64,000 bases of DNA from Eledone cirrhosa (taxonomy: Eukaryota): the NCBI GenBank assembly GCA_964016885.1, contig OZ024741.1, forward strand, positions 203,484,001-203,548,000. The letters are read 5' to 3'. Made by a program: the position numbers and the translations under genes. Numbering within the stretch: position 1 is the first letter of the stretch; the number at the start of each line of letters is the position of its first letter. Shown one piece after another: positions 9,602 to 40,710 of the stretch. Below the pieces are notes generated by a model. That model made no database searches. It was given only the letters and a program-made list of their open reading frames with translations, and was not told where the DNA came from.

Positions 9602-9678
9602 CTTGAGCTTGGGGACTGCCTGATGTTGTGCTGGTTCAGGACGCGTGTCCTCAGGCAGCCAAGGGCTTGACTGGCCTT

Positions 9679-10371: not shown

Positions 10372-10540
10372 GTCGATCGTGCCGCTGTTTGGGCAGAACT
10401 CACACTGGGCCTAAGGCAAGTTGTCCTCCGAGATGTTGGCGATGAGGCGGTTGAGCATGACCCGAGCCAGGACCTTCCCAGCAATGGACAGGAGAGAAAT
10501 GCCCCGATAGTTGCCACAGTCAGTTTTGCTGCCTTTGTTC

Positions 10541-11749
10541 TTAAAAAGCGAGACAACTGTGCCAACCCTGAAGTATTTGGTCACCTCTTCTTTCTCCCAT
10601 ATGCTGACGAGGAGGGTGTGGAAGGCCCCCAGGGCAGCTAGACCGGTCGACTTGAAGATCTTGGCAGGAATCCCGTCCTTCCCAGGGGCCTTCCTGAGCT
10701 GGTCTGGTTGATTGACTTCGTGACTTCATCCAAAGTAGGGGGAGATCGAGGCTGCCGACTACGGGCATCTGCGGGACCTGGTCGAGGACGGTAGTGTCGA
10801 CAGTGGAGGGCCTGTTGAGCAGGTTGCTGAAGTGCTCTCTCTCCACCTCGAGTTGATGCTGCTTCTCCTTCAGCAGGATCGAGCCGTCAGCAGGCTGCAG
10901 CGGTGTGGTGATAGGCTTGGAGGGTCCGTAGACGCCCCCGGTGGCGCTGAAGAACATCTTGGAGTTCTTTGTGCCAGCGTATCTCTCAACTTCTTCGGCC
11001 TTCTTTTCCCACCACTTGTCCTGCATTCTGCGTAGCGCTGCTTGGGTCTGCCTCTGGAGGTGCTTGAAGCGGTCGCGCTTCGAGGTGGAGGAGTTGTTAT
11101 TCTGCCACTCAATGAAAGCCCTCCTCTTCTCGTCCAGGAGTTGTCTGATGCGCTCATCGTTCTCATCAAACCCGTCCTGGTGAACTCTCTTTCTCGGCCC
11201 GATGGTTGCCTTGGCTAACTCTGTCACCAGCGACCTGAACTGTTCCCACTGTTGAGTTGGGGGTCCGGTCAGTGGTCCATGGGCAGTCAGCCGGCCGTCC
11301 AGGTCTTCCGCGAACGCATCACGATGCTCTGGCTGCTTGAGTCGTGCGACGTCGAAAGCTGGCCTACAGACTTTCGGTGTCTTGCGATGCGTCGGGGTGA
11401 TGTGCAATGACAGGATGGTCCTGACAAGGCGATGGTCGGTCCAACACTCTGCACCACGCTCAACCACAGGTATTGAGAGGTCTGGTAGCTGCTTGCAGAG
11501 CGAAGTCCTGATGGCCAGGCGTACCCAGTGGATTCTGTCCTCGTCCTTTTCATTGCCCTTCCGGAAGAAGGTGTAGCCTCCTTTTGGTTCTACTATTGGT
11601 CCTTTCTCGGCGAGTCTAGTCCCGCTGAGGGCGGCTATGTCGATCCGGTAGCGAGCTAATTCCCTCGCTATGAGGGCAGTTATTCTCTCTGGCCTCAAGG
11701 AGGTATCCCTATCCATGAGGGTGCGAACATTCCATGCGCCAAGAATCAA
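10541..11749 (-). pseudogene. RTE ORF fragment: APE endonuclease (internal deletion near 11460) and linker; frameshifted
   Basis: MILGAWNVRTLMDR...; the reading jumps from PVVER to GAECWTDH, lacking the TWMHPRSK..HLID block present in the second copy. Confidence 0.85.
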
Positions 11750-12639
11750 GTTCTTCTTTCTATTATGTTGGTTTCGACCGCTTGCAAGGGTAAAACCGCC
11801 AGCCGCGGTAGACTGGCCGGCTTCGTGTGGGACGAGCGTTTATCGCCCCTCTCCTCGTGCGAGGGTGAGCTGTGCTCCCCTGAAAAGGGCTGCTCAGTCA
11901 CCCGGTGGAACGCCTGATCTGCTCTGTCATCCCAGGGTGAGGAGAACAACTTGCGCATCCAGGCAGCCCACCTGTGGATTTGAGACTGGCAACTCCCAGA
12001 GGTTACCTCCACCTGTTACCTCCGCCTCTCGCCCATCACCGCAGGACTTTGGGAGTGCACACTAAAGAAGAAACCTGTGCGGGAAAGGTTTATAGAGGGA
12101 GGTTCAGTGCACAGTGACGGTCCCCCTCATTCGGCCGCAGAAGCCAGAATCCGGTGGTACGGAGGACCGTCAGGACCAGGGACTTCCTTGGCTGCAGTGG
12201 ATGGCCACGACGTCTGTAATGCCTTGCCATGCCCAAGCGCTCCACACCGCTTGTTGTCGCCGCCTTCGTGACCGTTGGGAATATGTTGTCCTCCTCCACT
12301 CACTCCGTCGGTTCCAGTCTTCGTATGCAGGGGCAGGAATCCCCTATCTAACACATCGGGGGGTTTCAGACCCGTCCGGCTACCCTCAACCTGGTTCGGC
12401 CCGCCAGCCAAGGCGGTTTACAAGGGTGTGGTCGCTGTCGCATGCTACAGCTTCTTGGGGCCATAGGTGAGAGCTGAGTGTCAGGTGGGACCCAATGCAG
12501 GACGAGCTGTCCTGAAAAGGGCATGGCTAGCCCACCCCCTCCCCCCTACAGAGGTACATGCCCCTCCCTGAGACTCCAGGAATATACAGCCGTATATACA
12601 TACACATACATATGTACATGTGTATATACATATTTACAC

Positions 12640-12874: not shown

Positions 12875-13860
12875 GAAATATCCACGGTTAGTTGTGGGGT
12901 CTAGTCTGCATGAAGAACTCAATGTAATCCATATGTTGAAAATGTTGTAGGTTAAAATAAATCCCGGAAAACAATAAAACATCAAAAGGAAAACAGAGTC
13001 ATGATATAAGTTAAAACAATAAAATAAAAATTCAAGTCATTAGATATATACTTCACTGATTTACGATCGTTTCTAGGTGATTTATAATACATCGTACGCA
13101 TATTTCGTTATCGATCTATGTAGGGTTAGTTACAAAATATCAAATAAGGAATATATTTACCTACGTGTCAAAAGCCGCTGTCAAAAGCAATGAACATTTT
13201 ATTCAAAATCAATAGTAAATTGAGTTCAATGAATTATGTAGGTACCCCCAACAACCATCTTACGTATGTTCGTAATTGCAGAAATAGAAGCGTTTGCCCC
13301 TTAAATGGCAACTGTTTGATTAATAATGTAATATATAAATGCACTGTGTCTACTACTGACTCCAACAAATCATATATAGGATCTACATCGAACACATTTA
13401 AGAAAAGATATTACGCACACTACAGTAGCTTTAACAATACTAAACTAGCTAACACCACATCTTTAGCTGAAGCTGTAAATAACTATAAAATGAAAAAAAT
13501 AGATTTCAACCTATCGTGGGATAACATTCTGCAAAGAACTCCATATCTTGGGAACAGGAGAGAATGCAGATTATGTTCCGCGGAGATCTTGGAAATTAAT
13601 ATATCTAAGGACGATTTATTGAATAAAAGACAGGACCTGATTATAGCTTGTAATCACCGTATACGAAAAACATTTAAGTAATATAAACCTAATTAAACAT
13701 TCTAAATGGCAACTCACTATAGTTCTATGTGACGTACCATTTGTTAGTATCCCCTTCACCTAATTATACGCTTTCCTGTTTATTTTTAACCTTTTAATTT
13801 TTTAGCTTCCATAGATTCATGCGTTACTGACTAAGGTACATAACCACCTGTAATTGTATG
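12870..13860 (+). mobile_element. 5'-truncated Naiad-like Penelope element with inverted pLTR piece at its 5' end
   Basis: GIY-YIG ORF. Segment 13040-13165 is homologous to the inverted HHR-bearing pLTR of the 5738 element (TTTACGATCGTTTCTAGG). Confidence 0.75.
13190..13681 (+). pseudogene. PLE GIY-YIG endonuclease domain, 5'-truncated
   Basis: (R/C)NCRNRSVCPLNGNC (CxCx5C-like), VIYKC...SYIGST, FKKRYYAH, CRLC..E, LLNKR. Confidence 0.85.
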
Positions 13861-14096
13861 GGTATACATGTATCTATGTATGATAAGAGAATATATATAT
13901 ATATGTATATATATATATGTGTGTATATGTGTATGTGTGTGTATATGTGTATGTACATGTATGTGTGTACATGTATATATGTATGTATAAGTGTGTGTAT
14001 ATATGTATAAATATATATATATATATATGTTTGTGTGCGTGTATGTATGTATATGTATATGTTTATATCTATGTATGCTTATGTATGTTTTTAATG

Positions 14097-17000
14097 TTTA
14101 TCGTTTTCGGTGCGCCCGGCCGATTAACTCACTCGATATGCAAATTAGGCTGCTCAGCCGTTAATATGCATAAGGATAGTATATACTTTCAGACGTTCAA
14201 TCATCTGGCAGGAATGTATACGGTGCTGCCGATAGCTAATAAGCTTGAAACTAGTACATCGTTCCTTTGTCAGCGTTGAACAAAAGGGCAACGATGGTTG
14301 CTAAACACTGTACGGCTTAATTCGGGATGTTGGTTCACAAACAAACTGGGCATTATAATAAATGTTCGGTAAATCCATACGTACATATATATATGTGTGC
14401 ATGTATGTATATATATATACATACAACTGTACGTCTGTATACATATATGTATGTACGTATACATACTTATATTTAAGTAACAGCCATACTAACAATGAGA
14501 AATGAAATTTCGTTTCATTTTTTCCATTTATCGTTTTCGGTGCGCCCGGCATATTAACTCACTTCATATGCAAATTAGGCTGCTCAGCTGTTACTATGCA
14601 TAAGGAAAGTATATACTTTCAGACGTTCAATCATCTGGCAGGAATGTATACGGTGCTGCCGATAGCTAATAAGCTTGAAACTAGTACATCGTTCCTTTGT
14701 CAGTGTTGAACAAAAGGTCAACGATGGTTGCTAAACACTGTACGGCTTAATTCGGGATGTTCGTTTACAAACAAACCGAGCATTATAATAAATGTTCGGT
14801 AAATCCATACGTACATATATATATGTGTGCATGTATGTATATATATATACATACAACTGTACGTCTGTATACATATATGTATGTACGTATACATACTTAT
14901 ATTTAAGTAACAGCCATACTAACAATGAGAAATGAAATTTCGTTTCATTTTTTCCATTTATCGTTTTCGGTGCGCCCGGCATATTAACTCACTTCACATG
15001 CAAATTAAGCTGCTCAGCTGTTACTATGCATAAGGAAAGTATATACTTTCAGACGTTCAATCATCTGGCGGGAAGGTTTACGGTGCTGACGATAGCTAAG
15101 AAGCTTGAAACTAGTATATCGTTCCTTTGTCAGTGTTGAACAAAAGGCAACGATGGTTGCTAAACACTGTACGGCTTAATTCGGGATGTTTGTTTACAAA
15201 CAAACCGAGCATTATAATAAATGTTCGGTAAATCCATACGTACATATATATATGTGTGCATGTATGTATATATATATACATACTACTGTACGTCTGTATA
15301 CATATATGTATGTACGTATACATACTTATATTTAAGTAACAGCCGTACTAAGAGTGAGGAATGAAATTTCGTTTCACTTTTTCCATTTATCGTTATCGGT
15401 GCGCCCAGCCGATTAACTACCTTGATATGCAAATTAGACTGCTCAGAGTTACTATGCATAAGAAAATATATACTCTCAGACGTTCAATCATCTGGCAGGT
15501 AGGTATACGGTGCTGACGATAGCTAATAAGTTTGAAATTAGTACATCGTTCCTTTGTCAGTGTTGAACAAAAGGGCAATTATGGTTGCTAAACACTGTAC
15601 GGCTTAATTCGGGATGTTTGTTTACAAACAAATCGAGCATGATAATAAAGTTTCGGTAATTTCATTCGTACATATATATATATGTGTTCATGTATGTATA
15701 TATATATACATACAACTGTTCATCTGTATTGATATATTTATGTACATATACATACTTATATTTAAGTAACAGCCGTACTAAGAGGGAGAATGAATTTCGT
15801 TTCATTTTTTCCATTTATCGTTTTCGGTGGGCCGCCCGATTGACTCACTTGATATGCAAATTAGGCTGCTCAGAGTTACTATGCATAGGGAAAGTATATA
15901 CTTTCAGACGTTCAATCATCTGGCAGGAAGCTATACGGTGCTGCGATAGGTAATAAGCTTGAAACTAATACATTGTTCCTTTGTCAGTGTTGAACAAAAT
16001 GTCAACGATGGTTGCTCAACACTGTACGGCTTAATTCGGGATGTTTGTTTACAAACAAACCGATCATTAAAATAAATATTCGGTAAATCCATACGTACAT
16101 ATATATATATGTGTGCATGTTTGTATATATATACATACTACTGTACGTCTGTATACATATATGTATGTACGTATACATACTTATATTTAAGTAACAGCCG
16201 TTCTAAGAGTGAGAAAGAAATTTCGGTTCATTTTTTCCATTTATCGTTATGGGTGCACCCGGCCGATTAATTCACTCAGAAATGCAAATTAGGCTGCTCA
16301 GAGTTACTATGCATAAGGAAAGTATATACTTTCAGGCGTTCAATCACCTGGCAGGAAGGTATACGGTGCTGACGATAGCTAATAAGCTTGAAACTAGTAC
16401 ATCGTTCCTTTGTCAGTGTTGAACAAAAGGGCAACGATGGGTGCTAAACCCTGTACGGCTTAATTCCGGATGTTTGTTTACAAACAAACCGAGCATTATA
16501 ATAAATGATCGGTAAATCCATACATACATATATATATATATGTGTGCATGTATATATATATATACACATACTACTGTACGTCTGTATACATATATGTATG
16601 TACGTATACATACTTATATTTAAGTAACAGCTGTACTAAGAGTGAGAAATGAAATTTCGTTTCATTTTTTCCATTTATCGTTTTCGGTGCGCCCGGACGA
16701 TTAACTTTCTTGAAATGCAAATTAGGCTGCTCAGCCGTTAATATGCATAAGGAAATTATATACTTTCAGACGTTCAATCATCTGGCAGGAAGGTATACGG
16801 TGCTGACGATAGCTAATAAGCTTGAAACTAGTACATCGTTCCTTTGTCAGTGTTGAACAAAAGGGAAACTATGCTTGCTAAACACTGTACGGCTTAATTC
16901 GGGATGTTTGTTTACAAACAAACCCAGCATTATAATAAATGTTCGGTAAATCCATACATACATATATATATATATGTGTGCATGTATATATATATATACA

Positions 17001-20000
17001 CATACTACTGTACGTCTGTATACATATATGTATGTACGTATACATACTTATATTTAAGTAACAGCCGTACTAAGAGTGAGAAATGAAATTTCGTTTCATT
17101 TTTTCCATTTATCGTTTTCGGTGCGCCCGGCCGATTAACTTTCTTGAAATGCAAATTAGGCTGCTCAGCCGTTAATATGCATAAGGAAAGTATATACTTT
17201 CAGACGTTCAATCATCTGGCAGGAAGGTATACGGTGCTGACGATAGCTAATAAGCTTGAAACTAGTACATCGTTCCTTTGTCAGTGTTGAACAAAAGGGC
17301 AACTATGGTTGCTAAACACTGTACGGCTTAATTCGGGATGTTTGTTTACAAACAAACCCAGCATTATAATAAATTTTCGGTAATTCCATACGTACATATA
17401 TATATATGCATGTATGTATATATATATATACATACTACTGTACGTCTGTATACATATATGTATGTACGTATACATACTTATATTTAAGTAACAGCCGTAC
17501 TAAGAGGGAGAAAGGTTATTTCGTTTCATTTTTCCATTTATCGTTTTCGGTGGGACGGCCGATTTACTAACTTGATATGCAAATTAGGCTGATCAGAGTT
17601 ACTAATCATAAGGAAAGTATAAACTTTCAGACGTTCAATCATCTAGCAGGAAAGTATACGGTGCTGGCGATAGCTAATAAGCTTGAAACTAGTACATCGT
17701 TCCTTTGTCAGTGTTGAACACAAGGGCAACGATGGTTGCTAAACACTACGGATTAATTCGAGATGGTTATTTACAAACAAACGGAGCATTATAATAAATG
17801 TTCGGTAAATCAATAACGCACATATATATATGTGTGCATCTATGTATATATATACATACTACTGTACATCTGTATACATATATGTATGTACGTATACATA
17901 CTTATATTTAAGTAACAGCCGTACTAAGAGGGAGAAAAGAGATTTCGTTTCATTTTTTCCATTTATCGTTTTCGATGCGCCCGGCCGATTAACTCACTTG
18001 ATATGCAAAATAGGCTGCTCAGCCGTTAATATGCATAAGGAAAGTATATACTTTCAGACGTTCAATCATCTGGCAGGAATGTATACGGTACTGACGATAG
18101 CTAATAAGCTTGAAAATAGTACATTGTTCCTTTGTCAGTGTTGAACAAAAGGTCGACGATGGTTGCTAAACACTGTACGGCTTATTCGGGATGTTTGTTT
18201 ACAAACAAACCTAGCATTATAATAAATGTTCGGTAAATCCATACATACATATATATATGTGTGCATGTATGTATATATATACATACTACTGTACGTCTGT
18301 ATACATATATGTATGTACGTATACATACTTATATTTAAGTAACAGCCGTTCTAAGAGTGAGAATTGAAATTTCGTTTAATATTTTCCATTTATCGTTTTC
18401 GGTGCACCCGGACGATTAAATCACTTGATATGCAAATTAGGCTGCTAAGAGTTACTATGCATAAGAAAAGTATAAACTTTCACACGTTCAATCATGTGGC
18501 AGCAAGTTTTACGGTGCTGAAGATAGCTAATAATTTTGAATCTAGTACATCGTTCCTTTGTCAGTGTTGAACAAAAGAGCAACGATGGTTGCCAAACACT
18601 GTACGGCTTAATTCAGGTTGTTTGTTTACAAACAAACCGAGCATTATAATAAATGTACGGTAAATCCATACGTACATATATATATATGTGTGCATGTATG
18701 TATATATATACATACTACTGTACGTCTGTATATATATATGTATGTGCGTATAAATACTTATATTTAAGTAACAGCCGTACTAAGAATGAGAAGTGAAATT
18801 TCGTTTCATTGTTTCCATTTATCGTTTTCTGTTCGCGCGGGCGATTAACTCACTCGATCTGCAAGTTAGACTGCTCAGCCTTTAATATGCATAAGGAAAG
18901 AAAGTATAAACTTTCAGACGTTCAATCATCTGGCAGGAATGTATACGGTGCTGACGATAGCTAATAAGCTTGGAACTAGTAAATCGTTCCTTTGACAGTG
19001 TTGAACAAAAGGTTAACGATGGTTGCTAAACACTGTACAGCTTAATTTGGGATGTTTGTTTACAAACAAACCGAGCATTATAATAAATGTTCGGTAAATC
19101 CATACGTACATATATATATGTGTGCATGTTTCTATATATATACATACTACTGTACGTCTGTATATATATATGTATGTGCGTATATATACTTATATTTAAG
19201 TAACAGCCGTACTAAGAATGAGGAGTGAAATTTCGTTTCATTTTTTCCATTTATCGATCTCTGTGCGCCAGGCCGATTAACTCACCTGATATGCAAATTA
19301 GGCTGCTCAGCTGTTAATATGCATGAGGAAAGTATATATTTCAGACGTTCAATCATGTGGCAGGAAGGTATACGGTACTGACGATAGCTAATAAGCTTGA
19401 AACTAGTACATCGTTCATTTGTCAGTGTCGAACAAAAGGGCAACTAGGGTTGCTAAACACTGTACAGCTTAATTTGGGATGTTTGTTTACAAACAAACCG
19501 AGCATTATAATAAATGTGCGGTAATTCCATACGTACATATATATATATATGCATGTATGTATATATATACATACTACTGTACGTCTGTATACATATATGT
19601 ATGTACGTATACATACTTATATTTAAGTAACAGCCGTACTAAGAGGGAGAAAAGAGATTTCGTTTCATTTTTTCCATTTATCGTTTTCGATGCGCCCGGC
19701 CGATTAACTCACTTGATATGCAAATTAGGCTGCTCAGCCATTAATATGCATAAGGAAAGTATATACTTTCAGACGTTCAATCATCTGGCAGGAAGGTTTA
19801 CGTTGCTGACGATAGCTAATAAGCTTGAAAATAGTACATTGTTCCTTTGTCAGTGTTGAACAAAAGGTCGACGATGGTTGCTAAACACTGTACGGCTTAA
19901 TTCGGGATGTTTGTTTACAAAAAAACCTAGCATTATAATAAATGTTCGGTAAATCCATACATACATATATATATGTGTGCATGTATGTATATATATACAT

Positions 20001-23000
20001 ACTACTGTACGTCTGTATACATATATGTATGTACGTATACATACTTATATTTAAGTAACAGCCGTTCTAAGAGTGAGAATTGAAATTTCGTTTAATATTT
20101 TCCATTTATCGTTTTCGGTGCACCCGGACGATTAAATCACTTGATATGCAAATTAGGCTGCTAAGAGTTACTATGCATAAGAAAAGTATAAACTTTCACA
20201 CGTTCAATCATGTGGCAGCAAGTTTTACGGTGCTGAAGATAGCTAATAATTTTGAATCTAGTACATCGTTCCTTTGTCAGTGTTGAACAAAAGAGCAACG
20301 ATGGTTGCCAAACACTGTACGGCTTAATTCAGGTTGTTTGTTTACAAACAAACCGAGCATTATAATAAATGTACGGTAAATCCATACGTACATATATATA
20401 TATGTGTGCATGTATGTATATATATACATACTACTGTACGTCTGTATATATATATGTATGTGCGTATAAATACTTATATTTAAGTAACAGCCGTACTAAG
20501 AATGAGAAGTGAAATTTCGTTTCATTGTTTCCATTTATCGTTTTCTGTTCGCGCGGGCGATTAACTCACTCGATCTGCAAGTTAGACTGCTCAGCCTTTA
20601 ATATGCATAAGGAAAGAAAGTATAAACTTTCAGACGTTCAATCATCTGGCAGGAATGTATACGGTGCTGACGATAGCTAATAAGCTTGGAACTAGTAAAT
20701 CGTTCCTTTGACAGTGTTGAACAAAAGGTTAACGATGGTTGCTAAACACTGTACAGCTTAATTTGGGATGTTTGTTTACAAACAAACCGAGCATTATAAT
20801 AAATGTTCGGTAAATCCATACGTACATATATATATGTGTGCATGTTTCTATATATATACATACTACTGTACGTCTGTATATATATATGTATGTGCGTATA
20901 TATACTTATATTTAAGTAACAGCCGTACTAAGAATGAGGAGTGAAATTTCGTTTCATTTTTTCCATTTATCGATCTCTGTGCGCCAGGCCGATTAACTCA
21001 CCTGATATGCAAATTAGGCTGCTCAGCTGTTAATATGCATGAGGAAAGTATATATTTCAGACGTTCAATCATGTGGCAGGAAGGTATACGGTACTGACGA
21101 TAGCTAATAAGCTTGAAACTAGTACATCGTTCATTTGTCAGTGTCGAACAAAAGGGCAACTAGGGTTGCTAAACACTGTACAGCTTAATTTGGGATGTTT
21201 GTTTACAAACAAACCGAGCATTATAATAAATGTGCGGTAATTCCATACGTACATATATATATATATGCATGTATGTATATATATACATACTACTGTACGT
21301 CTGTATACATATATGTATGTACGTATACATACTTATATTTAAGTAACAGCCGTACTAAGAGGGAGAAAAGAGATTTCGTTTCATTTTTTCCATTTATCGT
21401 TTTCGATGCGCCCGGCCGATTAACTCACTTGATATGCAAATTAGGCTGCTCAGCCATTAATATGCATAAGGAAAGTATATACTTTCAGACGTTCAATCAT
21501 CTGGCCGGAGGGTGCACTGTGCTGTCGATAGCTAATAAGCTTGACACTAGTACATCGTTCCGTTGTCAGTGTTGAACCAAAGAGCAACGAAGGTTGCTAA
21601 ACACTGTACGGCTTGATTCGGGATCTTTGTTTACAAACAAACCGAGCATTATAATAATGGTTCGGTAAATCCATACGTACATATATATACGCGTGCATGT
21701 ATGTATATATACACATACTACTGTACATCTGTATACATATATATATGTACGTATACATACTTATATTTAAGTAACAGCCGTATTAAGGATGAGAAATGAA
21801 ATTTCGTTTCATTTTTTCCATTTATCATTTTCGGTGAGATCGGCCTATTACCTCACTCGATATGTAAATTAGGCTGCTCAGCCGTTAACATGCACAAGGA
21901 AAGAAAGTATATACTTTCAGACTTTCAATCATCTGGCAGGAAGATGCAACGTGCTGACAATAGCTAATAAGATTGAAACTAGTACATCGTTCCTTTGTCA
22001 GTGTTGAAAAAAAGGGCAACGCTCGTAGTAAAACACTGTACGGCTTAATTCGGGATGTTTGTTCACAAACAAACCTTGCACTATAATAAATGTTCGGTAA
22101 ATCCATACGTACATATATATATATATGTGTGCATGTATGTATATATATACATACTACTGTACGTCTATATATATATGTATGTACGTATACATAGTTATAT
22201 TTAAGTAACAGCCGTACTAAGTGTGAGAAATGAAATTTCGTTTCATTTTTCCATTCATCGTTTTCTGTGCACCCGGCCGATTAACGCCCTCGATATGCAA
22301 ATTAGGCTGCTCAGCCGTTAATATGCATGAGAAAAGTATATACTTTCAGACGGTCAATCATCTGGCAGGAAGGTATACGATGCTGACGATAGCTAATAAG
22401 CTTGAAACTAGTACATCGTTCCTTTGTCAGTGTTGGACAAAAAGGCAACGATGGTTGCTAAACACTGTACGGCTTAATTCGGGATGTTTGTTTACAAACA
22501 AACCAAGCATTATAATAAATGTTCGGTAAATCCATACCTACATATATATATATGTGTGCATGTACGTATATATATACATACTTCTGTACGTCTGTATACA
22601 TATATGTATGTACGTATACATACTTATATGTATTTAACAGCCGTACTAAGAATGAGAATTGAAATTTCGTTTCATTTTTTCCATTTATCGTTTAGGGTGC
22701 GTCCGGCCGATTAACTCACATGATATGCAAACTAGGCTGCTCAGCCATTAATATGCATAAGGAAAGTATATACTTTCAGACGTTCAACCATCTGCCAGGA
22801 AGGTACACCGTGCCGATGATAGCAAATATGCTTGAAACTTTTACGTCGTTCCTTTGTCAATGTTGAACAAAAGGGCAACGATGGGTGCTAAACACTGTAC
22901 TGCTTAATTCAGGATGTTTGTTAACAAACAAACCGAGCATTATAATAAATGTTCGGTAAATCCATACGTACATATATATATATATGTGTGCATGTATGTA

Positions 23001-25844
23001 TATATATACATACTACTGTACGTCTATATATATATGTATGTACGTATACATACTTATATTTAAGTAACAGCCGTATTAAGGATGAGAAATGAAATTTCGT
23101 TTCATTTTTTCCATTTATCATTTTCGGTGAGATCGGCCTATTACCTCACTCGATATGTAAATTAGGCTGCTCAGCCGTTAACATGCACAAGGAAAGAAAG
23201 TATATACTTTCAGACTTTCAATCATCTGGCAGGAAGATGCAACGTGCTGACAATAGCTAATAAGATTGAAACTAGTACATCGTTCCTTTGTCAGTGTTGA
23301 AAAAAAGGGCAACGCTCGTAGTAAAACACTGTACAGCTTAATTCGGGATGTTTGTTCACAAACAAACCGTGCACTATAATAAATGTTCGGTAAATCCATA
23401 CGTACATATATATATATATGTGTGCATGTATGTATATATATACATACTACTGTACCTCTATATATATATATGTATGTACGTATACATAGTTATATTTAAG
23501 TAACAGCCGTACTAAGTGTGAGAAATGAAATTTCGTTTCATTTTTCCATTCATCGTTTTCTGTGCACCCGGCCGATTAACGCCCTCGATATGCAAATTAG
23601 GCTGCTCAGCCGTTAATATGCATGAGAAAAGTATATACTTTCAGACGGTCAATCATCTGGCAGGAAGGTATACGATGCTGACGATAGCTAATAAGCTTGA
23701 AACTAGTACATCGTTCCTTTGTCAGTGTTGGACAAAAAGGCAACGATGGTTGCTAAACACTGTACGGCTTAATTCGGGATGTTTGTTTACAAACAAACCA
23801 AGCATTATAATAAATGTTCGGTAAATCCATACCTACATATATATATATGTGTGCATGTACGTATATATATACATACTTCTGTACGTCTGTATACATATAT
23901 GTATGTACGTATACATACTTATATGTATTTAACAGCCGTACTAAGAATGAGAATTGAAATTTCGTTTCATTTTTTCCATTTATCGTTTAGGGTGCGTCCG
24001 GCCGATTAACTCACATGATATGCAAACTAGGCTGCTCAGCCATTAATATGCATAAGGAAAGTATATACTTTCAGACGTTCAACCATCTGCCAGGAAGGTA
24101 CACCGTGCCGATGATAGCAAATATGCTTGAAACTTTTACATCGTTCCTTTGTCAATGTTGAACAAAAGGGCAACGATGGGTGCTAAACACTGTACGGCTT
24201 AATTCAGGATGTTTGTTAACAAACAAACCGAGCATTATAATAAATGTTCGGTAAATCCATACGTACATATATATATATATATGTGTGCATGTATGTATAT
24301 ATATACATACTACTGTACGTCTATATATATATGTATGTACGTATACATAGTTATATTTAAGTAACAGCCGTACTAAGTGTGAGAAATGAAATTTCGTTTC
24401 ATTTTTCCATTCATCGTTTTCTGTGCACCCGGCCGATTAACGCCCTCGATATGCAAATTAGGCTGCTCAGCCGTTAATATGCATGAGAAAAGTATATACT
24501 TTCAGACGGTCAATCATCTGGCAGGAAGGTATACGATGCTGACGATAGCTAATAAGCTTGAAACTAGTACACCGTTCCTTTGTCAGTGTTGGACAAAAGG
24601 GCAACGATGGTTGCTAAAAAGTGTACGGCTTAATTCGGGATGTTTGTTTACAAACAAACCAACTACTATAATAAATTTTCGGTAACTCCATACGTACATA
24701 TATATATATATGTGTGTATGTATGTATATATAAGTCTGTATACATATATGTATGTACGTATACATACTTATATTTAAGTAACAGCCGTACTAAGAGTGAG
24801 AAATGAAATTTCGTTTCATTTTTTCCATTTATCGTTATCGGTGTGCCCGGCCGATTAACTTTCTTGAAATGCAAATTAGGCTGCTCAGCCGTTAATATGC
24901 ATAAGGAAACAAAGTATAAATTTTCAGACGTTCAATCCTCTGGTAGAAAGGTATACTGTGTTGACGATAGCTAAAAAGCTTGAAACTAGTACATCATTCC
25001 TTTGTCAGTGTTGGACAAATGGGCAACGATGATTGCTAAACACTGTACGGCTTAATTCGGGATGATGTTTACAAACAAACCCAGCATTATAATATATATA
25101 CGTACATATATATATAAGTGTGCATGTATGTATTTATATACATACTACTTTACGTCTGTATACATATATGTACGTATACATACTTATATTTAAGTAACAG
25201 CCGTACTAAGAGTGAGAAATGAAATTTCGATAAATTTTTTCCATTTATCATTCTCGGTGCGTCCGGCCAATTAACTCGCTCGATATGCAAATTAGGCTGC
25301 TCAGCCGTTAATATGCATAAGGAAAGAAAGTATTAAATTTCAGACTTTCAATCATCTGATGGTTATTCACAAACAAACCGAGTATTATAATAAATGTTCG
25401 CTAAATCCATACGTACATATATGTACGTGTGAATGTATGTATATATATACATACTATTGTACGTCTGTATATATATATTTATGTACGTATACATACTTAT
25501 ATTTAAGTAACAGCTGTACTATGAGTGAGAAATTAAATTTCGTTTCATTTTTTCCATTTATTGTTTTCGGTGCGCCCGGCCAATTAACTCACTCGATATG
25601 CAAACTAGGCTGCTCAGCCGATAATATGCATAAGGAAAGAAAGTATAAACTTTCAGACCTTCAATCATCTGGCAGGACGGTATACGGTGCTGACGATAGG
25701 TAATAAGCATGAAACTAATATATCGTTCCTTTGTCAGTGTTGGACAAAAGAGAAACGATGGCTGCTAAACACTGTACGGCTTAATTCGGGGTGTTTGTTG
25801 ACAAACTAACCCAGCATTATAATAAATGTTCGGTAAATCCATAC

Positions 25845-25881
<37 letters not shown>

Positions 25882-28800
25882 TGTTCATGTATGTATATAT
25901 ATACATACTATTGTACGTCTGTATATATATATGTATGTACGTATACATACTTACATTTAAGTAACAGCCGTACTAAGAGTGAGAAATGAAATTTCGTTTC
26001 ATTATTTCCATTTACCGTTTTCGGTGCGCCCGGCCGATTAAGTCACTCGATATGCAAACTAGGCTGCTCAGCCGTTAATATGCATAAGGAAAGAAAGTAT
26101 AAACTTTCAGACGTTCAATCATCTGGCAGGAAGGTATACGGTGCTGACGATAGCTAATAAGCTTGAAACTAGTACATCGTTCCTTTGTCAGTTTTGAACA
26201 AAATGGCAACGATAGTTGCTAAACACTGTACGGCTTAATTTGGGATGTTTGTTTACAAACAAACCCAGCATTATAATAAATGTTCGGTAAATCCATACGT
26301 ACATATATATATATATGTGTGCATGTATGTATATATATATACATACTACTGCACGTCTGTATACATATATGTATGTATGTATACATACTTATATTTATGT
26401 AACAGCCGTACTAAGAGTGAGAATTGAAAATTCGTTTCATTTTTTCCATTTATTGTTTCGGGTCGCCCGGCCGATTAACTGACTCGAAATGCAAATTAGG
26501 CTGCTCAGCCGTTAATATGCATAAGGAAAGTATATATCTTCAGACGTTCAATCATCTGGCAGGAAGATACACCGTGCTGACGATAGCTAATACGATTTAA
26601 ACTAGTACATCCTTCCTTTATAAATATTCAACAAAAGGGCAACGATGGTTGCTAAACACTGTACAGCTTAATTCGGGATGGTTGTTCACAAACAAACCGA
26701 GCATTATAATAAATGTTCGTTAAATCCATACATACATATATATATGTGTGCATGTATGTATATATATACTACTACTGTACGTCTGTATATATATATGTAT
26801 GTACGTATACATACTTATATTTAAGTAACAGCCGTACTAAGTGTGAGAAATGAAATTCGTTTTATTTTTTCCATTTATACTTTTCGGTGCGTTGGCCGAT
26901 TAACTCACTCTACATGCAAATTAGGCTGCTCAGCCGTTAATATGCATAAGGAAAGTATATATTTTCAGACGTTCAATCATCTGGCAGGAAGATACACCGT
27001 GCTGACGATAGCAAATAAGTTTGAAACTAGTACGTCGTTCATTTGTCAGTGTTGAAAAAAAGGGCAACGCTCGTAGTAAAACACTGTACGGCTTAATTCG
27101 GGATGTTTGTTCACAAACAAACCGTGCACTATAATAAATGTTCGGTAAATCCATACGTACATATATATATATATGTGTGCATGTATGTATATATATACAT
27201 ACTACTGTACGTCTATATATATATGTATGTACGTATACATAGTTATATTTAAGTAACAGCCGTACTAAGTGTGAGAAATGAAATTTCGTTTCATTTTTCC
27301 ATTCATCGTTTTCTGTGCACCCGGCCGATTAACGCCCTCGATATGCAAATTAGGCTGCTCAGCCGTTAATATGCATGAGAAAAGTATATACTTTCAGACG
27401 GTCAATCATCTGGCAGGAAGGTATACGATGCTGACGATAGCTAATAAGCTTGAAACTAGTACATCGTTCCTTTGTCAGTGTTGGACAAAAAGGCAACGAT
27501 GGTTGCTAAACACTGTACGGCTTAATTCGGGATGTTTGTTTACAAACAAACCAAGCATTATAATAAATGTTCGGTAAATCCATACCTACATATATATATA
27601 TGTGTGCATGTACGTATATATATACATACTTCTGTACGTCTGTATACATATATGTATGTACGTATACATACTTATATGTATTTAACAGCCGTACTAAGAA
27701 TGAGAATTGAAATTTCGTTTCATTTTTTCCATTTATCGTTTAGGGTGCGTCCGGCCGATTAACTCACATGATATGCAAACTAGGCTGCTCAGCCATTAAT
27801 ATGCATAAGGAAAGTATATACTTTCAGACGTTCAACCATCTGCCAGGAAGGTACACCGTGCCGATGATAGCAAATATGCTTGAAACTTTTACGTCGTTCC
27901 TTTGTCAATGTTGAACAAAAGGGCAACGATGGGTGCTAAACACTGTACTGCTTAATTCAGGATGTTTGTTAACAAACAAACCGAGCATTATAATAAATGT
28001 TCGGTAAATCCATACGTACATATATATATATATATGTGTGCATGTATGTATATATATACATACTACTGTACGTCTATATATATATGTATGTACGTATACA
28101 TACTTATATTTAAGTAACAGCCGTATTAAGGATGAGAAATGAAATTTCGTTTCATTTTTTCCATTTATCATTTTCGGTGAGATCGGCCTATTACCTCACT
28201 CGATATGTAAATTAGGCTGCTCAGCCGTTAACATGCACAAGGAAAGAAAGTATATACTTTCAGACTTTCAATCATCTGGCAGGAAGATGCAACGTGCTGA
28301 CAATAGTTAATAAGATTGAAACTAGTACATCGTTCCTTTGTCAGTGTTGAAAAAAAGGGCAACGCTCGTAGTAAAACACTGTACGGCTTAATTCGTGATG
28401 TTTGTTCACAAACAAACCGTGCACTATAATAAATGTTCGGTAAATCCATACGTACATATATATATATATGTGTGCATGTATGTATTTATATACATACTAC
28501 TGTACGTCTATATATATATGTATGTACGTATACATAGTTATATTTAAGTAACAGCCGTACTAAGTGTGAGAAATGAAATTTCGTTCATTTTTCCATTCAT
28601 CGTTTTCTGTGCACCCGGCCGATTAACGCCCTCGATATGCAAATTAGGCTGCTCAGCCGTTAATATGCATGAGAAAAGTATATACTTTCAGACGGTCAAT
28701 CATCTGGCAGGAAGGTATACGATGCTGACGATAGCTAATAAGCTTGAAACTAGTACATCGTTCCTTTGTCAGTGTTGGACAAAAAGGCAACGATGGTTGC

Positions 28801-31800
28801 TAAACACTGTACGGCTTAATTCAGGATGTTTGTTTACAAACAAACCAAGCATTATAATAAATGTTCGGTAAATCCATACCTACATATATATATATGTGTG
28901 CATGTACGTATATATATACATACTTCTGTACGTCTGTATACATATATGTATGTACGTATACATACTTATATGTATTTAACAGCCGTACTAAGAATGAGAA
29001 TTGAAATTTCGTTTCATTTTTTCCATTTATCGTCTAGGGTGCGTCCGGCCGATTAACTCACATGATATGCAAACTAGGCTGCTCAGCCATTAATATGCAT
29101 AAGGAAAGTATATACTTTCAGACGTTCAACCATCTGCCAGGAAGGTACACCGTGCCGATGATAGCAAATATGCTTGAAACTTTTACATCGTTCCTTTGTC
29201 AGTGTTGAACAAAAGGGCAACGATGGGTGCTAAACACTGTACGGCTTAATTCAGGATGTTTGTTAACAAACAAACCGAGCATTATAATAAATGTTCGGTA
29301 AATCCATACGTACATATATATATATATATGTGTGCATGTATGTATATATATACATACTACTGTACGTCTATATATATATGTATGTACGTATACATAGTTA
29401 TATTTAAGTAACAGCCGTACTAAGTGTGAGAAATGAAATTTCGTTTCATTTTTCCATTCATCGTTTTCTGTGCACCCGGCCGATTAACGCCCTCGATATG
29501 CAAATTAGGCTGCTCAGCCGTTAATATGCATGAGAAAAGTATATACTTTCAGACGGTCAATCATCTGGCAGGAAGGTATACGATGCTGACGATAGCTAAT
29601 AAGCTTGAAACTAGTACACCGTTCCTTTGTCAGTGTTGGACAAAAGGGCAACGATGGTTGCTAAACACTGTACGGCTTAATTCGGGATGTTTGTTTACAA
29701 ACAAACCAACTACTATAATAAATTTTCGGTAACTCCATACGTACATATATATATATATGTGTGTATGTATGTATATATAAGTCTGTATACATATATGTAT
29801 GTACGTATACATACTTATATTTAAGTAACAGCCGTACTAAGAGTGAGAAATGAAAATTCGTTTCATTTTTTCCATTTATCGTTTTCGGTGCGCCCGGCCG
29901 ATTAACTTTCTTGAAATGCAAATTAGGCTGCTCAGCCGTTAATATGCATAAGGAAACAAAGTATAAATTTTCAGACGTTCAATCCTCTGGTAGAAAGGTA
30001 TACTGTGTTGACGATAGCTAAAAAGCTTGAAACTAGTACATCATTCCTTTGTCAGTGTTGGACAAATGGGCAACGATGATTGCTAAACACTGTACGGCTT
30101 AATTCGGGATGATGTTTACAAACAAACCCAGCATTATAATATATATACGTACATATATATATAAGTGTGCATGTATGTATTTATATACATACTACTTTAC
30201 GTCTGTATACATATATGTACGTATACATACTTATATTTAAGTAACAGCCGTACTAAGAGTGAGAAATGAAATTTCGATAAATTTTTTCCATTTATCATTC
30301 TCGGTGCGTCCGGCCAATTAACTCGCTCGATATGCAAATTAGGCTGCTCAGCCGTTAATATGCATAAGGAAAGAAAGTATTAAATTTCAGACTTTCAATC
30401 ATCTGATGGTTATTCACAAACAAACCGAGTATTATAATAAATGTTCGCTAAATCCATACGTACATATATATACGTGTGAATGTATGTATATATATACATA
30501 CTATTGTACGTCTGTATATATATATTTATGTACGTATACATACTTATATTTAAGTAACAGCTGTACTATGAGTGAGAAATTAAATTTCGTTTCATTTTTT
30601 CCATTTATTGTTTTCGGTGCGCCCGGCCAATTAACTCACTCGATATGCAAACTAGGCTGCTCAGCCGATAATATGCATAAGGAAAGAAAGTATAAACTTT
30701 CAGACCTTCAATCATCTGGCAGGACGGTATACGGTGCTGACGATAGGTAATAAGCATGAAACTAATATATCGTTCCTTTGTCAGTGTTGGACAAGAGAGA
30801 AACGATGGCTGCTAAACACTGTACGGCTTAATTCGGGGTGTTTGTTGACAAACTAACCCAGCATTATAATAAATGTTCGGTAAATCCATACGTACATATA
30901 TATATACGTGTGCATGTATGTATATATATACATAGTACTGTACGTCTGTATACATATATGTATTAGGTATACATACTTATATTTAAATAACAGCCGTACT
31001 AAGAGTGAGAAATGAAATTTCGTTTCATTTTTTCCCTTTATCATTTTCGGTGCGCCCGGCCGATTAACTCACTCAATATGCAAATTAGGCTGCTCAGCCG
31101 TTAATGTGCACACGGAAAGAAAGTATATACTTTCAGACGTTCAATCATCTGGCCGGAGGGTGCACCGTGCTGTCGATAGCTAATAAGCTTGAAACTAGTA
31201 CATCGTTCCGTTGTCAGTGTTGAACCAAAGAGCAACGAAGGTTGCTAAACACTGTACGGCTTGATTCGGGATCTTTGTTTACAAACAAACCGAGCATTAT
31301 AATAATGGTTCGGTAAATCCATACGTACATATATATACGTGTGCATGTATGTATATATACACATACTACTGTACATCTGTATACATATATATATGTACGT
31401 ATACATACTTATATTTAAGTAACAGCCGTATTAAGGATGAGAAATGAAATTTCGTTTCATTTTTTCCATTTATCATTTTCGGTGAGATCAGCCTATTACC
31501 TCACTCGATATGTAAATTAGGCTTTTCAGCCGTTAACATGCACAAGGAAAGAAAGTATATACTTTCAGACTTTCAATCATCTGGCAGGAAGATGCAACGT
31601 GCTGACAATAGCTAATAAGATTGAAACTAGTACATCGTTCCTTTGTCAGTGTTGAAAAAAAGGGCAACGCTCGTAGTAAAACACTGTACGGCTTAATTCG
31701 GGATGTTTGTTCACAAACAAACCGTGCACTATAATAAATGTTTCGGTAAATCCATAAATACATATATATATGTGTGCATGTTTGTATATATATAAATACA

Positions 31801-32617
31801 ACTGTACGTGTGTATACATATATGTATGTACGTATACACACTTGTATTTAAGTTATAGCCGTTCTAAGAGTGAGAAATGAAATTTCATTTTATTTTTTCC
31901 ATTTATCGTTTTCGGTGCGCTCGGCCGATTAACTCAGTCGATATATTAATTAGGCTGCTCAGCCGTTAATATGCATCAGGAAATAAAGTATAAACTTTCA
32001 GACGTTCAATCATCTGGCAGGAAGTTTGACGATAGCCAATAAGCTTGAAACTAGTACAGCGTTCCTTTGTCAGTGTTGGACAAAAGGGCAACGATGGTTG
32101 CTAAACACTGTACGGCTTAATTCGGGATGTTTGTTTACAAACAAAAAAAAGCATTATAATAAATGTTCGGTAAATCCATACGTACATATATATATGTGTG
32201 CATGTATGTATATATATATATATATATACATACTACTGTACGTCTGTATATATATGTGTATGTATGTATACATACTTATATTTAAGTAACAGCCGTACTA
32301 AGTGTGAGAAATGAAATTCGTTTCATTTTTTCCATTTATCTTTTTCGGTGCGTTGGCCGATTAACTCACTCTATATGCAAATTAGGCTGCTCAGCCGTTA
32401 ATATGCATAAGGAAAGTATATATTTTCAGACGTTCAATCATCTGGCAGGAAGATACACCGTGCTGACGATAGCAAATAAGTTTGAAACTAGTACATCGTT
32501 CCTTTGTCAATGTTGAACAAAAGGACAACGATGGGTGCTAAACACTGTACGGCTTAATTCGGGATGTTTGTTTACAAACAAACCGAGCATTATAATAAAT
32601 GTTCGGTAAATCCATAC

Positions 32618-32658
<41 letters not shown>

Positions 32659-34442
32659 TGTTCATGTATGTATATATATACATACTATTGTACGTCTGTA
32701 TATATATATGTATGTACGTATACATACTTACATTTAAGTAACAGCCGTACTAAGAGTGAGAAATGAAATTTCGTTTCATTATTTCCATTTACCGTTTTCG
32801 GTGCGCCCGGCCGATTAACTCACTCGATATGCAAACTAGGCTGCTCAGCCGTTAATATGCATAAGGAAAGAAAGTATAAACTTTCAGACGTTCAATCATC
32901 TGGCAGGAAGGTATACGGTGCTGACGATAGCTAATAAGCTTGAAACTAGTACATCGTTCCTTTGTCAGTTTTGAACAAAATGGCAACGATAGTTGCTAAA
33001 CACTGTACGGCTTAATTTGGGATGTTTGTTTACAAACAAACCCAGCATTATAATAAATGTTCGGTAAATCCATACGTACATATATATATATATGTGTGCA
33101 TGTATGTATATATATATACATACTACTGCACGTCTGTATACATATATGTATGTATGTATACATACTTATATTTATGTAACAGCCGTACTAAAAGTGAGAA
33201 TTGAAAATTCGTTTCATTTTTTCCATTTATTGTTTCGGGTCGCATTGTACGGCTTAATTCGGGATGTTTGTTTACAAACAAACCGGGCATTATAATAAAT
33301 GTTCGCTAAATTCGTACGTACATATATATATATATGTGTGTGTGTGTGCAAGTATGTACTGTAGGTTTATATATACATATATGTATGTACGTATACATAC
33401 TTATATTTAAGTAACAGCCGTACTAAGAGTGAGAAAAGAAACTAGTACATCGATCCTTTGTCAATTCTGAACAATAGGGCAACGATTGTTTCTAAACACT
33501 GTACGGCTTAATTTGGCATGTTTGTTTGCAAACAAACCGAGCATTATAATAAATGTTCGGTAAATCCATACGTACATATATATATATATATGTGTGTGCA
33601 TGTATGTATATATATATATACTACTGTAGGACCTCTATACATATATGTATGTACGTATACATACTTATATTTAAGTAAAAGCTGTACTAAGAGTGAGAAA
33701 TGAAATTTCGTTTCATTTTTTCCAATTATCGTTTTCGGTGCGCAGGCCGATTAACTCACTCTATATGCAAATTAGGCTGCTCAGCCGTTAATATGCATAA
33801 GGAAAAAAGTATATACTTTCAGACGTTCAATCATCTGGCAGGAAATTATACGGTGCTGACGATAGCTAATAAGCTTGAAACTAGTACATCGATCCTTTGT
33901 CAGAGTTGAACAAAAGGGCCACGATGGTTGCTAAACACTGTACGGCGTAATTCGGGATGTTTGTTTACAAACAAACCAAGCATTTTTAATAAATGTTCGG
34001 TAAATCCATACGTACATATATAGATATATGTGTGCATGCATATATATATATACTACTACTGTACGTCTGTATAGATATATGAATGTACGTATACATACTT
34101 ATATTTAAGTAACAGCCATACTATGAGTGAGAAATGAAATTTTGTTTCATTTTTTCCATTCATCATTTTCGGTGCGCCCGGCCGATTAACTCACTCGATA
34201 TGCAAATTAGGCTGCTCAGCCGTTAATATGCATAAGGAAAGTATATACTTTCAGACGTTCAATCGTCTGGCAGGAAGGTATACGGTGCTGACGATAGCTA
34301 ATAAGCTTGAAACTAGTCCATCGTTCGTTTGTCAGTGTTGAACAAAAGGTCAACGATGGTTGCTAAACACTGTACGGCTTAATTCGGGATGTTCGTTTAC
34401 AAACAAACCGGGCATTATAATAAGTGTTCGGTAAATCCATAC

Positions 34443-34477
<35 letters not shown>

Positions 34478-34478
34478 C

Positions 34479-34480
<2 letters not shown>
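14097..34480 (+). repeat. ~430-bp tandem satellite, ~48 units, nearly all with a minimal hammerhead ribozyme (retrozyme-like array); higher-order repeats
   Basis: HHR positions recur at 14221, 14651, 15081... 34283. Identical ORF pairs show periods of 1716, ~1294 and 5047 bp. Confidence 0.95.
16364..16404 (+). ncRNA. Representative satellite hammerhead ribozyme (minimal type I)
   Basis: CGGTG CTGACGA T AGC TAATAA GCT T GAAA CTAG TA CATCG: stem I 5 bp (one G.U), stem II 3 bp, palindromic stem III ACTAGT, GTA cleavage site. Confidence 0.85.
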
Positions 34481-34548
<68 letters not shown>

Positions 34549-34740
34549 CATATAAATATATATTTACGTACGTTATTCCGGGTTGAATCGGAGGTAACCA
34601 TGTTAAGTAAGGTACTCAATACATAGCAGAGTATAAATGTTTTAATATAAACGAGATTCTTCAGGACTAGAAATGTATGATGATTTCTAAAGAATGAAAC
34701 AATTCCAGTCCTGTAGAATATCATCTATATTAATACTATT

Positions 34741-38161: not shown

Positions 38162-39267
38162 CGTTTCTGAATTTGTTTAGCAAGATTCTTTATTTGAAAA
38201 CGTGTGTTGAAACCGATATTGTTATACTTTGGGAGGGTCATGTTGCCAATAAGAAACACATGCACAAGTTGCTTTCACTTCAATTTATTATAATAAATTG
38301 AGGAATTTATAAATTTCCGGTTGGTTGGTTGGTTCCACAACCGGATGGTTGTTTATATATTGTCAAAGTTCTTTCGTCACACGTTCTGTGACCTCTTCAG
38401 TGACTGAGGATTCTTTTCTTTGTTTTTGTGCCCCTCATTTGTTCTGTCCTACGCCATTTTGTTTCTGTGTGTGTGTTGTGTGCTCAGTCTGCGCATGCTC
38501 CACATCCGGGTGTCTGCGTGTGTTTATATTCGTTTATTTATTTGTTTATTTACATGTTATAGGTTGGTTGTTTGTTCTATGTGCGTGTGTGTTTTCACTT
38601 TGTCCTTAATTGTAAGTTGTGATGTTGCTGTTCCACTCTTGTTTTCTATTTAATTTTGGTTGTAATTCTTTTATGTTTATTGCCTCTGTGATTTGTCTAA
38701 ACACTGCGTCTTTTCTGTGTGTGGATTCTATTTTTATTTCTATGTTCTCTAATTTACCCTTATGTTCTATTTTAGCATGTTGGTAGAGTACAGATGATTC
38801 TTTACTATCTTGAAGGTCTCGCCAGTGTTCATTTATCCGTTCCCTTACACTACGAGCTGTCTCACCTATGTACACTATATTTTTATCTCTACATTGTCCT
38901 TCAGTACATCTTATGCTAGATACTACATTTCTAGTTTTACATTTAATATACAGGTTATACATTTCTTATCTATACAGGTGGGTCTTTGAAAAGGGTAAGT
39001 CTTGCTAATAAGTGTTTTTATGGAGGTACCTGGTCTTTCTACTATCTTAATATTGAGTTTATGTTTATCTAGGGCCCTTCTAAATTTGTAAGCTAATTCA
39101 CCTCTAGGGGTTGTATCGATGAACATTAGACTCTGGTATTTATTGCTAACATACCATGAGTTTATTCTGTTAGCCTTATTCCTAGTTCTTTCAATTCTAT
39201 TCCAAAATTTGCTCCTATACAAGGGGCAGGTCCCATTTGTGTCATTATTTACCATTTTTTCCCATTT

Positions 39268-40228: not shown

Positions 40229-40429
40229 GGACAAAATGAAAACACACACGCACAGAGAACAAACAACCAACCTGTAACATGTAAATAAACAAATAAATAA
40301 ACGAATATAAACACACACAGACGCCCGAATGTGGCGCATGCGCAGACTGAGCACACAACACACACACAGAAACAAAATGGCGTAGGACAGAACAAAGGAG
40401 AGGCACAAAAACAAAGAAAAGAATCCCCA

Positions 40430-40472
40430 GTCACTGAAGAGGTCACAGAGTGTGTGACGAAAGAACTTTGAC
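40430..40472 (+). ncRNA. Minimal hammerhead ribozyme in PLE family A pLTR (copies 38362-38404 -, 40869-40911 -, 42286-42330 +, 62511-62553 -, 63927-63971 +)
   Basis: GTCA CTGAAGA G GTCACA GAGTG TGTGAC GAAA GAAC T(T/A) TGAC; lies on the sense strand of the element. Confidence 0.82.

Positions 40473-40633: not shown

Positions 40634-40710
<77 letters not shown>

Follow-up and report, generated by a model that had tools for sequence, protein, structure and literature searches.

A 20-kb hammerhead array in Eledone cirrhosa: an ageing copy of a dispersed retrozyme-like repeat with insertion ends of Penelope type

Metazoan non-LTR retrozymes, described from coral, mussel and axolotl, are non-coding tandem units some hundreds of base pairs long that each carry one type I hammerhead. 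They are low in GC, have a highly paired predicted circle, and range from dispersed monomers to long arrays (PMC7229834; 10.64898/2026.07.22.740005). Reported monomers span 51–972 bp and reported arrays reach 300 units. In the parts of this literature compared here, the transcription of animal retrozymes and the enzyme that copies them have so far been proposed rather than shown. Copying by Penelope-like elements (PLEs) is the proposal of both sources, the compared parts of which give no genomic evidence of the kind presented below. Two hammerhead satellites, newt satellite 2 and Schistosoma Sm-alpha, carry a promoter inside the monomer, and their tandem layout is needed for that promoter to enter the cleaved RNA (PMC2220036, PMC6765202). 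The former uses a snRNA promoter read by Pol II, the latter a SINE-like Pol III promoter. PLEs, for their part, form tandem and inverted structures with a one-sided tail and a bias to (TA)n (PMC8557442).

The array described here lies in a window of 64,000 nucleotides, the whole stretch of DNA that was analysed. Its features are collected in Table 1. The family to which it belongs, F1, resembles the retrozymes in all the general traits listed above: the unit is tandem and non-coding, falls inside ~150–1000 bp, has no LTR, PBS, PPT or ORF, and has a predicted circle that is 66% paired. It differs in its minimal, PLE-like type of hammerhead and in a U6-like element, which the compared parts of PMC7229834 do not mention. 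Expression and cleavage have been shown for retrozymes (PMC7229834) and are predicted for F1. Our verdict is that the unit belongs to the non-LTR retrozymes and that the genome holds evidence for the proposed PLE and circle route, with cleavage, transcription and circles being predicted. Taken together, we consider it probable that the array represents an ageing, extended copy of a dispersed non-coding repeat with a covarying hammerhead fold, that PLEs likely supply the enzymes, and that the template was probably a circular monomer cut by the predicted ribozyme.

Table 1. Positions of the array, its neighbours and example features, numbered from the first letter of the window
Feature	Position	Strand	Remarks
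Left neighbour, 3' fragment of PLE-like element	13148..14088	+	weak GIY-YIG match, 3' UTR, TA/TG-rich tail
Tandem array, family F1 subfamily A	14097..34445 (right end approximate)	+	49 segments, unit ~430 bp, non-coding
Intact minimal type I hammerhead, example (unit 7; unit positions 124-166)	16797..16839	+	predicted cut after 16833 (GUA)
First fixed insertion end (unit ~379), example	17040..17053	+	microhomology to (TA)n
Tail of ~50-55 bp	17054..17112	+	hairpin and T6 run (17099-17104); holds second fixed end
Exact block duplication, 1583 bp	18207-19789 = 19923-21505 (18207..21505)	+	recent
Unit with ~117-bp deletion	25244..25557	+	hammerhead lost; duplicated at 30291-30604
12-mer (unit 41-52), example	34199..34210	+	matches the -78 element that U6, U6atac and RNase MRP genes of the host carry
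TATA-like box (unit 83-89), example	34241..34247	+	42 bp after 12-mer start
(TA)n tract at array right end	34447..34563	.	adjoins last unit

The initial annotation had counted about 48 head-to-tail units. The array is confirmed, with 49 segments at a period of 427–433, 44 of them near full length, and no RT or GIY-YIG ORF was found in it. The initial annotation had also spoken of a long monomer and a large array; neither length is unusual, both lying inside the reported ranges. The array consensus is that of dispersed subfamily A, from which the array diverges by ~6%. Positions in the hammerhead core have changed at the rate of the remainder of the unit (15/308 against 522/8288, p=0.40); selection on the hammerhead was not seen inside the array, which is not itself a conserved self-processing system. 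A core no better kept than the rest had been named beforehand among the points that would count against the proposal, and at this locus it is what is found.

The unit is a small protein-free element, scattered in thousands of places, with a predicted self-cutting motif. A genome-wide search gave 3,737 exact matches to a 20-mer and 9,640 to a 35-mer of the hammerhead (controls 0); 52 of 109 pieces are exact, giving a rough estimate of 2x10^4 copies. The 20-kb array is thus a decaying copy of a genome-wide mobile family and not a system particular to its locus. It is old, partly dead, and ordinary by itself. Searches of the main texts of the open literature listed no prior description in this lineage, apart from a count of 235 Rfam hammerheads in the giant squid, and no retrozyme with a U6-type promoter or with traces of editing.

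The array grew after its insertion, as the exact duplication of 1583 bp demonstrates, and a second exact block measures 909 bp. For this locus only, an insertion of one to three units might have been expanded to 49 by unequal crossing-over in the style of an ordinary satellite, a reading to which we give not far short of an even chance. Both exact blocks agree with it, as do a 4-bp insertion found in 17/47 array segments and in 0/163 dispersed copies, the many variants common to at least 3 of 28 non-redundant units, and a like block pattern in a 62-unit array of a sister family, F2 (62% overall identity to F1). However, 172 variants are singletons, and the mean pairwise distance between the 28 units is 0.91 times what their distances to the consensus add up to, which is near a star, as if many units had been born together; moreover, one-step insertions of 20 units exist in F2. 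The final unit breaks off near unit position 300 with no canonical end, and neither an inverted arm nor a canonical 3' end is present at this array, so its own origin by PLE insertion is putative.

A minimal type I hammerhead is present on the + strand of the array consensus. Stem I is there as annotated, although it is 6 bp long (ACGGTG/CATCGT), one more than the 5 first noted. The consensus also has the palindrome, the GTA triplet and, where stem II begins, the U.U mismatch; the same mismatch occurs at the helix II base of axolotl HHR_Amex2 (PMC7229834). The two variants singled out earlier, one with fully Watson-Crick stem I and one with GTC, are found in place, with predicted cuts after 22413 and 34318. 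It is no longer tenable that nearly every unit encodes a hammerhead: the region is retained in 45/49 segments, all core nucleotides in 23, and the core together with the stems is intact in only 19, while 13 pass a strict type I descriptor. Six neighbouring pairs of intact hammerheads occur in the array.

When one unit was dinucleotide-shuffled 20,000 times, the type I descriptor was never matched on either strand. Pair 127:163 is U.G in 64, G.U in 33 and A-U in 7 of 114 pieces, split by subfamily. Across seven variants of relatives, 7 of the 12 pairs change on both sides and pairing amounts to 96%, as against 0/500 shuffles and at most 43% in slid controls. The retrozyme-like hammerhead repeat of the initial annotation is supported by the descriptor and by this covariation, although the array itself is a decaying copy of a dispersed family. 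Rfam scoring, which had been suggested as a check, matched no hammerhead model: there were none in the whole window at gathering score, one unit at E<=10 gave only two unrelated snoRNA matches, and none appeared among the matches listed (150 of 186) for 14000-18000. The Rfam miRNA matches arise from the TA-rich part. In one study of Xenopus retrozymes, 1/9 dimers cleaved in vitro.

Upstream of the hammerhead is a 12-mer, exact in 23/47 array segments, which resembles an element of U6 promoters in the host itself and is a putative promoter. It stands at -77 to -79 in 5/5 host Pol III promoters (three U6 loci, MRP and U6atac), a count that leaves out 14 further U6 and 5 further U6atac matches without the 12-mer at -78, taken as pseudogenes from their flanks; it occurs in 0/13 U1/U2 promoter regions. 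The apparent match is to the U6/U6atac/MRP upstream element and not to U1/U2, in contrast to the snRNA promoter read by Pol II in newt satellite 2 and the SINE-like promoter of Sm-alpha. If it acts as a promoter, its place inside the monomer would parallel both satellites, including the need for a tandem layout.

There is a substantial chance, somewhat below even, that the 12-mer is a conserved hairpin arm or octamer and that transcription is passive Pol II read-through. Its start lies 42 bp from the TATA-like box in 162/163 dispersed copies, against 46–48 bp in host genes, so that the two are 4–6 bp too close. It doubles as one arm of a predicted hairpin, the upstream enhancer element common to host snRNA genes is absent from the unit, and the unit has T4 and T6 runs at which Pol III should stop before completing a monomer. 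On the other hand, the 12-mer is identical (12/12) in F1 and F2, despite their overall divergence, while its pairing arm differs; the TATA-like box keeps a fixed distance in both families; and the distribution among host genes is specific to Pol III. Among 20,000 shuffles, 52 reached 11/12 of the 12-mer, and one subfamily, amounting to 22/180 pieces, has a mismatch in it.

The ends of dispersed copies were mapped at 72 loci chosen by position, giving 132 arms and 49 head-to-head pairs. Two fixed sites in (TA)n account for 118/132 arm ends, 58 at unit positions 373-384 and 60 at positions of at least 426, the second site being unit ~430, extended by as many as 5 bases of the unit that follows. 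One of each end is found in 36 of the 49 pairs, two alike in 2, and another end in 11. Most arm ends are followed by (TA)n, a microsatellite target. The dispersed copies, although not this array, include partial tandems that are 5'-truncated, with an inverted 5' arm and one-sided tail. PLEs and non-autonomous Chlamys derivatives such as MRC1 (Craig et al. 2021, PMC8557442) have in common with F1 this truncation, the partial tandems, the inverted arm, the tail and the microsatellite target, and also multicopy head-to-tail non-autonomous forms. The differences are that F1 has no ORF, that its tail is ~50-55 bp rather than 30–40, and that a comparison with the two PLE types in the window found no autonomous partner resembling it at the 3' end. 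We conclude that these ends are a PLE footprint and that PLE enzymes likely supply the insertion. A cluster of 5' ends just past the cut site was seen in the best-scoring matches only, and is rejected because the position-ordered sample has 8/132 in 161-200 against 12 in 121-160.

The nature of the template is indicated by arms that read through the cut site (99/132) or cross the unit junction (53/132), and by editing traces and evidence for a single template that come from F2, not F1. At one F2 locus (L237-238), 20 identical pieces with canonical ends, 7 in the inverted and 13 in the forward arm, all carry the same three private A>G changes. At another (L312), 11 of 14 locus-specific differences are A>G and are repeated in 2–3 tandem units, which is what repeated copying of a single edited RNA should produce. 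In a second F2 sample, 11/11 private A>G changes come from one locus, and two other loci show T>C. The A>G excess in F1 is not significant (2 vs 0 among 9 rare shared variants). It is unlikely that the template was instead a linear multimeric transcript of a parent array, which would involve the same element and PLE enzymes and make a circle unnecessary. Weak minimal hammerheads leave multimers uncut, arms reading through the cut site fit these equally, and young arrays show shared variants that come back block by block; yet the identical private A>G sets in each insertion (20/20 and 2-3/2-3 at the two loci) are unexpected if units were edited independently, unless the parent array arose from one edited RNA.

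No sequence link was found between the unit and the PLE-like fragment to its left. The adjoining PLE type was rejected as helper, since its 3' UTR, compared at 20 loci (one misoriented), has no hammerhead and no similarity to the unit. The other PLE type in the window bears its own, different hammerhead; the 3' ends of the two types have no sequence in common with the unit, and a comparison of these two types revealed no autonomous PLE sharing sequence with it. It is quite improbable that the unit, rather than being an independent element, is a terminal repeat (pLTR) that has come away from an autonomous PLE still to be found, for although Xenopus retrozymes resemble pLTRs (24/57 families matched TEs) and PLEs typically have minimal palindromic hammerheads, mapped loci show the unit head-to-tail with itself and no common ORF-bearing 5' neighbour, and both PLE types of the window carry unrelated 3' ends.

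Returning to a circular monomer copied by PLE enzymes, we hypothesise the following route. Pol III would start from the U6-like element near unit position 114, 10 nt before stem I, and would sometimes read past the T-runs into the next unit. The predicted hammerheads, probably as dimers formed through the palindromic stem III, would cut one unit after another, each after position 160, and so free a 430-nt monomer with the promoter sequence now inside, which a host ligase may close into a circle. A PLE endonuclease and RT would then open a (TA)n target and prime on either side of it, using two fixed sites that lie ~50 nt apart; the resulting head-to-head arms would be longer than one unit and run through the cut site, the footprint that is observed. 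Once inserted, the present array decayed neutrally, until it stood 6% away from the subfamily consensus, and was enlarged by duplication of blocks. More speculatively, and with rather more doubt than belief, F1 could be a self-sufficient RNA replicon: the circular monomer would carry the host's upstream U6-type promoter, and the PLE RT would roll round it from both sides of the (TA)n break, so that multi-kilobase satellite arrays would be written in a single step and ADAR edits become fixed in the genome. A normal Pol III transcript would leave an upstream U6-type promoter behind; tandem read-through, cutting and circularisation would bring it inside the RNA.

The family numbers ~10^4 copies, its ends are fixed and some of its two-armed insertions are very young, which makes both transcription and copying testable. 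It offers a substrate to an in vitro assay of PLE retrotransposition, such as is still lacking, and shows how reverse transcription can give rise to large satellite arrays. The initial annotation had missed the dispersed copies with their Penelope-type ends, and also the U6-like element. It is worth adding that sequencing run X17 (DNA or RNA not specified) contains the unit, which is no measure of expression, and that its contigs favour the A-U variant of stem I, with a depth of 1103 of 1590 at one place.

The array consists of units with a period of 427–433 bp, running from 14097 to about 34456 (Tandem Repeats Finder). It was cut into 49 segments, 44 of them near full length, and these were aligned. 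As proposed in the initial annotation, the repeat carries a type I hammerhead: the unit consensus has the minimal form, with a 6-bp stem I, CUGACGA, a stem II composed of U.U and three pairs, GAAA, a stem III formed by the palindromic ACUAGU, and the triplet GUA, and a cut is predicted after unit position 160. None of 20,000 shuffles matched the hammerhead descriptor; the Rfam check of the array did not detect the hammerhead. The feature is real and its class is already known, the repeat having the sequence characters of metazoan non-LTR retrozymes, as was also suggested. According to PMC7229834, cleavage and circles have been shown for coral, mussel and axolotl retrozymes, and copying of the circles by Penelope-like elements (PLEs) has been proposed. 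A 2026 preprint (10.64898/2026.07.22.740005) adds co-occurrence and pLTR similarity, and itself terms its life-cycle evidence limited. In the main texts of the openly accessible literature, no paper was found that describes such insertion ends, traces of editing or an element of the U6 type for retrozymes.

The proposal that nearly every unit encodes a hammerhead fails, because the core is kept in only 23/49 segments, and core and stems together pass in 19/49. Better conservation of the core within the array was likewise not borne out (changed cells 15/308 in the core vs 522/8288 elsewhere, p=0.40, 28 non-redundant units). The array is decaying, and the mean distance of its 44 full units from their consensus is 6.1%. 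The unit tree is near star-like (ratio 0.91), with later block copies that are exact over up to 1583 bp. At its left edge the array begins with unit position 1 and follows the TA/TG-rich tail of a PLE-like fragment; the right edge lies near unit position 300, in (TA)n. The array consensus shows zero differences from that of dispersed subfamily A, one of the groups within the unit family (F1), and it is to this family, not to the array, that the mechanistic evidence belongs.

This unit belongs to a mobile element found across the whole genome. Exact matches in 3.0 Gb number 3,737 for a 20-mer and 9,640 for a hammerhead 35-mer (controls 0), 13 of the latter being inside the window, and the rough genome total is 2x10^4. 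Insertion ends were mapped from the first 100 of the 3,737 20-mer matches (contig C1), merged into 74 loci; after removal of segmental duplicates (2 loci and 2 half-loci), 132 arms remained, an arm being a run of unit copies (pieces) in one orientation. The arms end at unit 373–384 (short end, 58/132) or at position 426 or higher (long end, 60/132), mostly passing into (TA)n via short TTAT microhomology, and their 5' ends are scattered. Of the head-to-head pairs, 36/49 have a short end on one arm and a long end on the other. Craig et al. (PMC8557442) list incomplete tandem copies, inversion of the 5' arm, one-sided tails and a bias towards microsatellites as features of PLE insertion, and in their account these are unseen for non-LTR elements. 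GIY-YIG PLE-like elements are abundant in the Eledone cirrhosa genome; among those compared, none had sequence in common with the unit.

The F1 arms read through the cut site in 99/132 cases and cross the unit junction in 53/132, and the template was therefore a circle or an uncut multimer. A sister family, F2, is younger and more informative. It makes up the bulk of the matches listed for a pattern built to exclude F1 (9,909 matches, control 5), and has a unit of 466–469 bp, 62% identical over the unit to F1. A-to-I editing of the + strand RNA would leave an A>G cluster on one strand. At the F2 locus L237-238, which has both canonical ends, an inverted arm of 7 and a forward arm of 13 identical pieces carry three A>G changes missing in 16/16 other pieces. 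Insertion-wide private variants in a first sample of 24 F2 loci (n=13) include 8 A>G and 1 T>C. Another 28 loci, sampled second, gave A>G in 11/17 such variants vs 8/87 unshared ones; all 11 come from L312, where they are among 14 locus-specific differences recurring in its tandem units, and T>C occurs in two other loci. The recurrence of such a cluster from unit to unit fits one RNA copied several times. The A>G signal in F1 was not significant. Older long arrays, which have 31, 16 and at least 62 pieces, also share variants in blocks, and thus array growth continues after insertion.

Long arrays of sister family F2
Feature	Position	Description
F2 array	G000:C1:5738094-5752742	31 pieces + inverted arm, at least 97.9% identity
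F2 array	C1:30831610-30840864 (L237-238)	20 identical pieces in two arms
F2 array	C1:95620986-95649999+	at least 62 units

Subfamily A is distinguished from subfamily B by 10 positions, and two of these pair with each other in stem I (G.U to U.G); in a third group, A-U is found at this pair. Among seven hand-chosen variants, both sides change in 7/12 pairs while 96% of cells are paired, a level reached by 0/500 shuffles and compared with at most 43% in slid structures, bearing in mind that F2 was retrieved via the hammerhead core and that kinship among rows alone can outdo shuffles. The comparison argues that the hammerhead fold is selected in active lineages. In one further relative of the unit, the single such locus examined (L205:1490-1540, -), a C-G pair replaces the basal U.U of stem II, and GUU stands at the cut site.

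Second-hand accounts report internal promoters in such repeats, for Pol II in newt and for Pol III in schistosome. A 12-mer at unit 41–52 is identical between F1 and F2, and is found with 0–1 mismatch at -77 to -79 of three U6 loci, the RNase MRP gene and the best U6atac match, each with TATA at -31. It occurs in 0/13 U1/U2 upstream regions, and 19 weaker U6/U6atac matches without it at about -78 were treated as pseudogenes. A TATA-like box follows it at a distance of 42 bp in 162/163 dispersed copies vs 46–48 bp in the host genes. The unit contains T4 and T6 runs, and lacks the upstream element common to host snRNA genes. Judged from these motifs, the unit is about equally likely to carry a working Pol III promoter or not. 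In the host snRNA upstream regions (L255-L301, L337), the 12-mer at -78 is Pol III-specific, U1/U2 have a TCAGT-like box near -55, and a TTACCTCCCTT-like element is shared at about -255 to -290, a layout useful for native U6 cassettes. Pseudogene-like U6 and U6atac matches begin right after (TA)n tracts at L281, L282, L338 and L339, which suggests that Pol III RNAs may be retroposed into the same target.

The window contains several other elements. Fragments of one PLE-like element, tandem and inverted, lie at 38230-42540, 42989-43821 and 62371-64000; its C-terminal part has a GIY-YIG match. This element, a candidate helper, has a tail of ~55 bp and a type I hammerhead of its own (42291, 63932), in which the core is followed by an extra G. 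A second PLE-like type, very abundant (59,775 first-look candidates), is present as 3' fragments (5845-6343, 13148-13890), with no hammerhead seen in its 3' UTR. At the retrieved genomic locus L108:1197-1290, 78 bp of the 3' end of this type are fused directly to the unit near position 150, after (TA)n, possibly through a helper/passenger RNA template switch or a nested insertion. A different short hammerhead-bearing element (44040-44312; cores 44128, -, and 44243, +) is present as two head-to-head copies flanked by (TA)n tracts, with a partial copy at 56140-56290; its 3' part recurs near many retrieved genomic loci. Reverse transcriptase matches mark broken LINE copies at 8990-12560 (-), 57364-59818 (-) and 53393-55993 (+).
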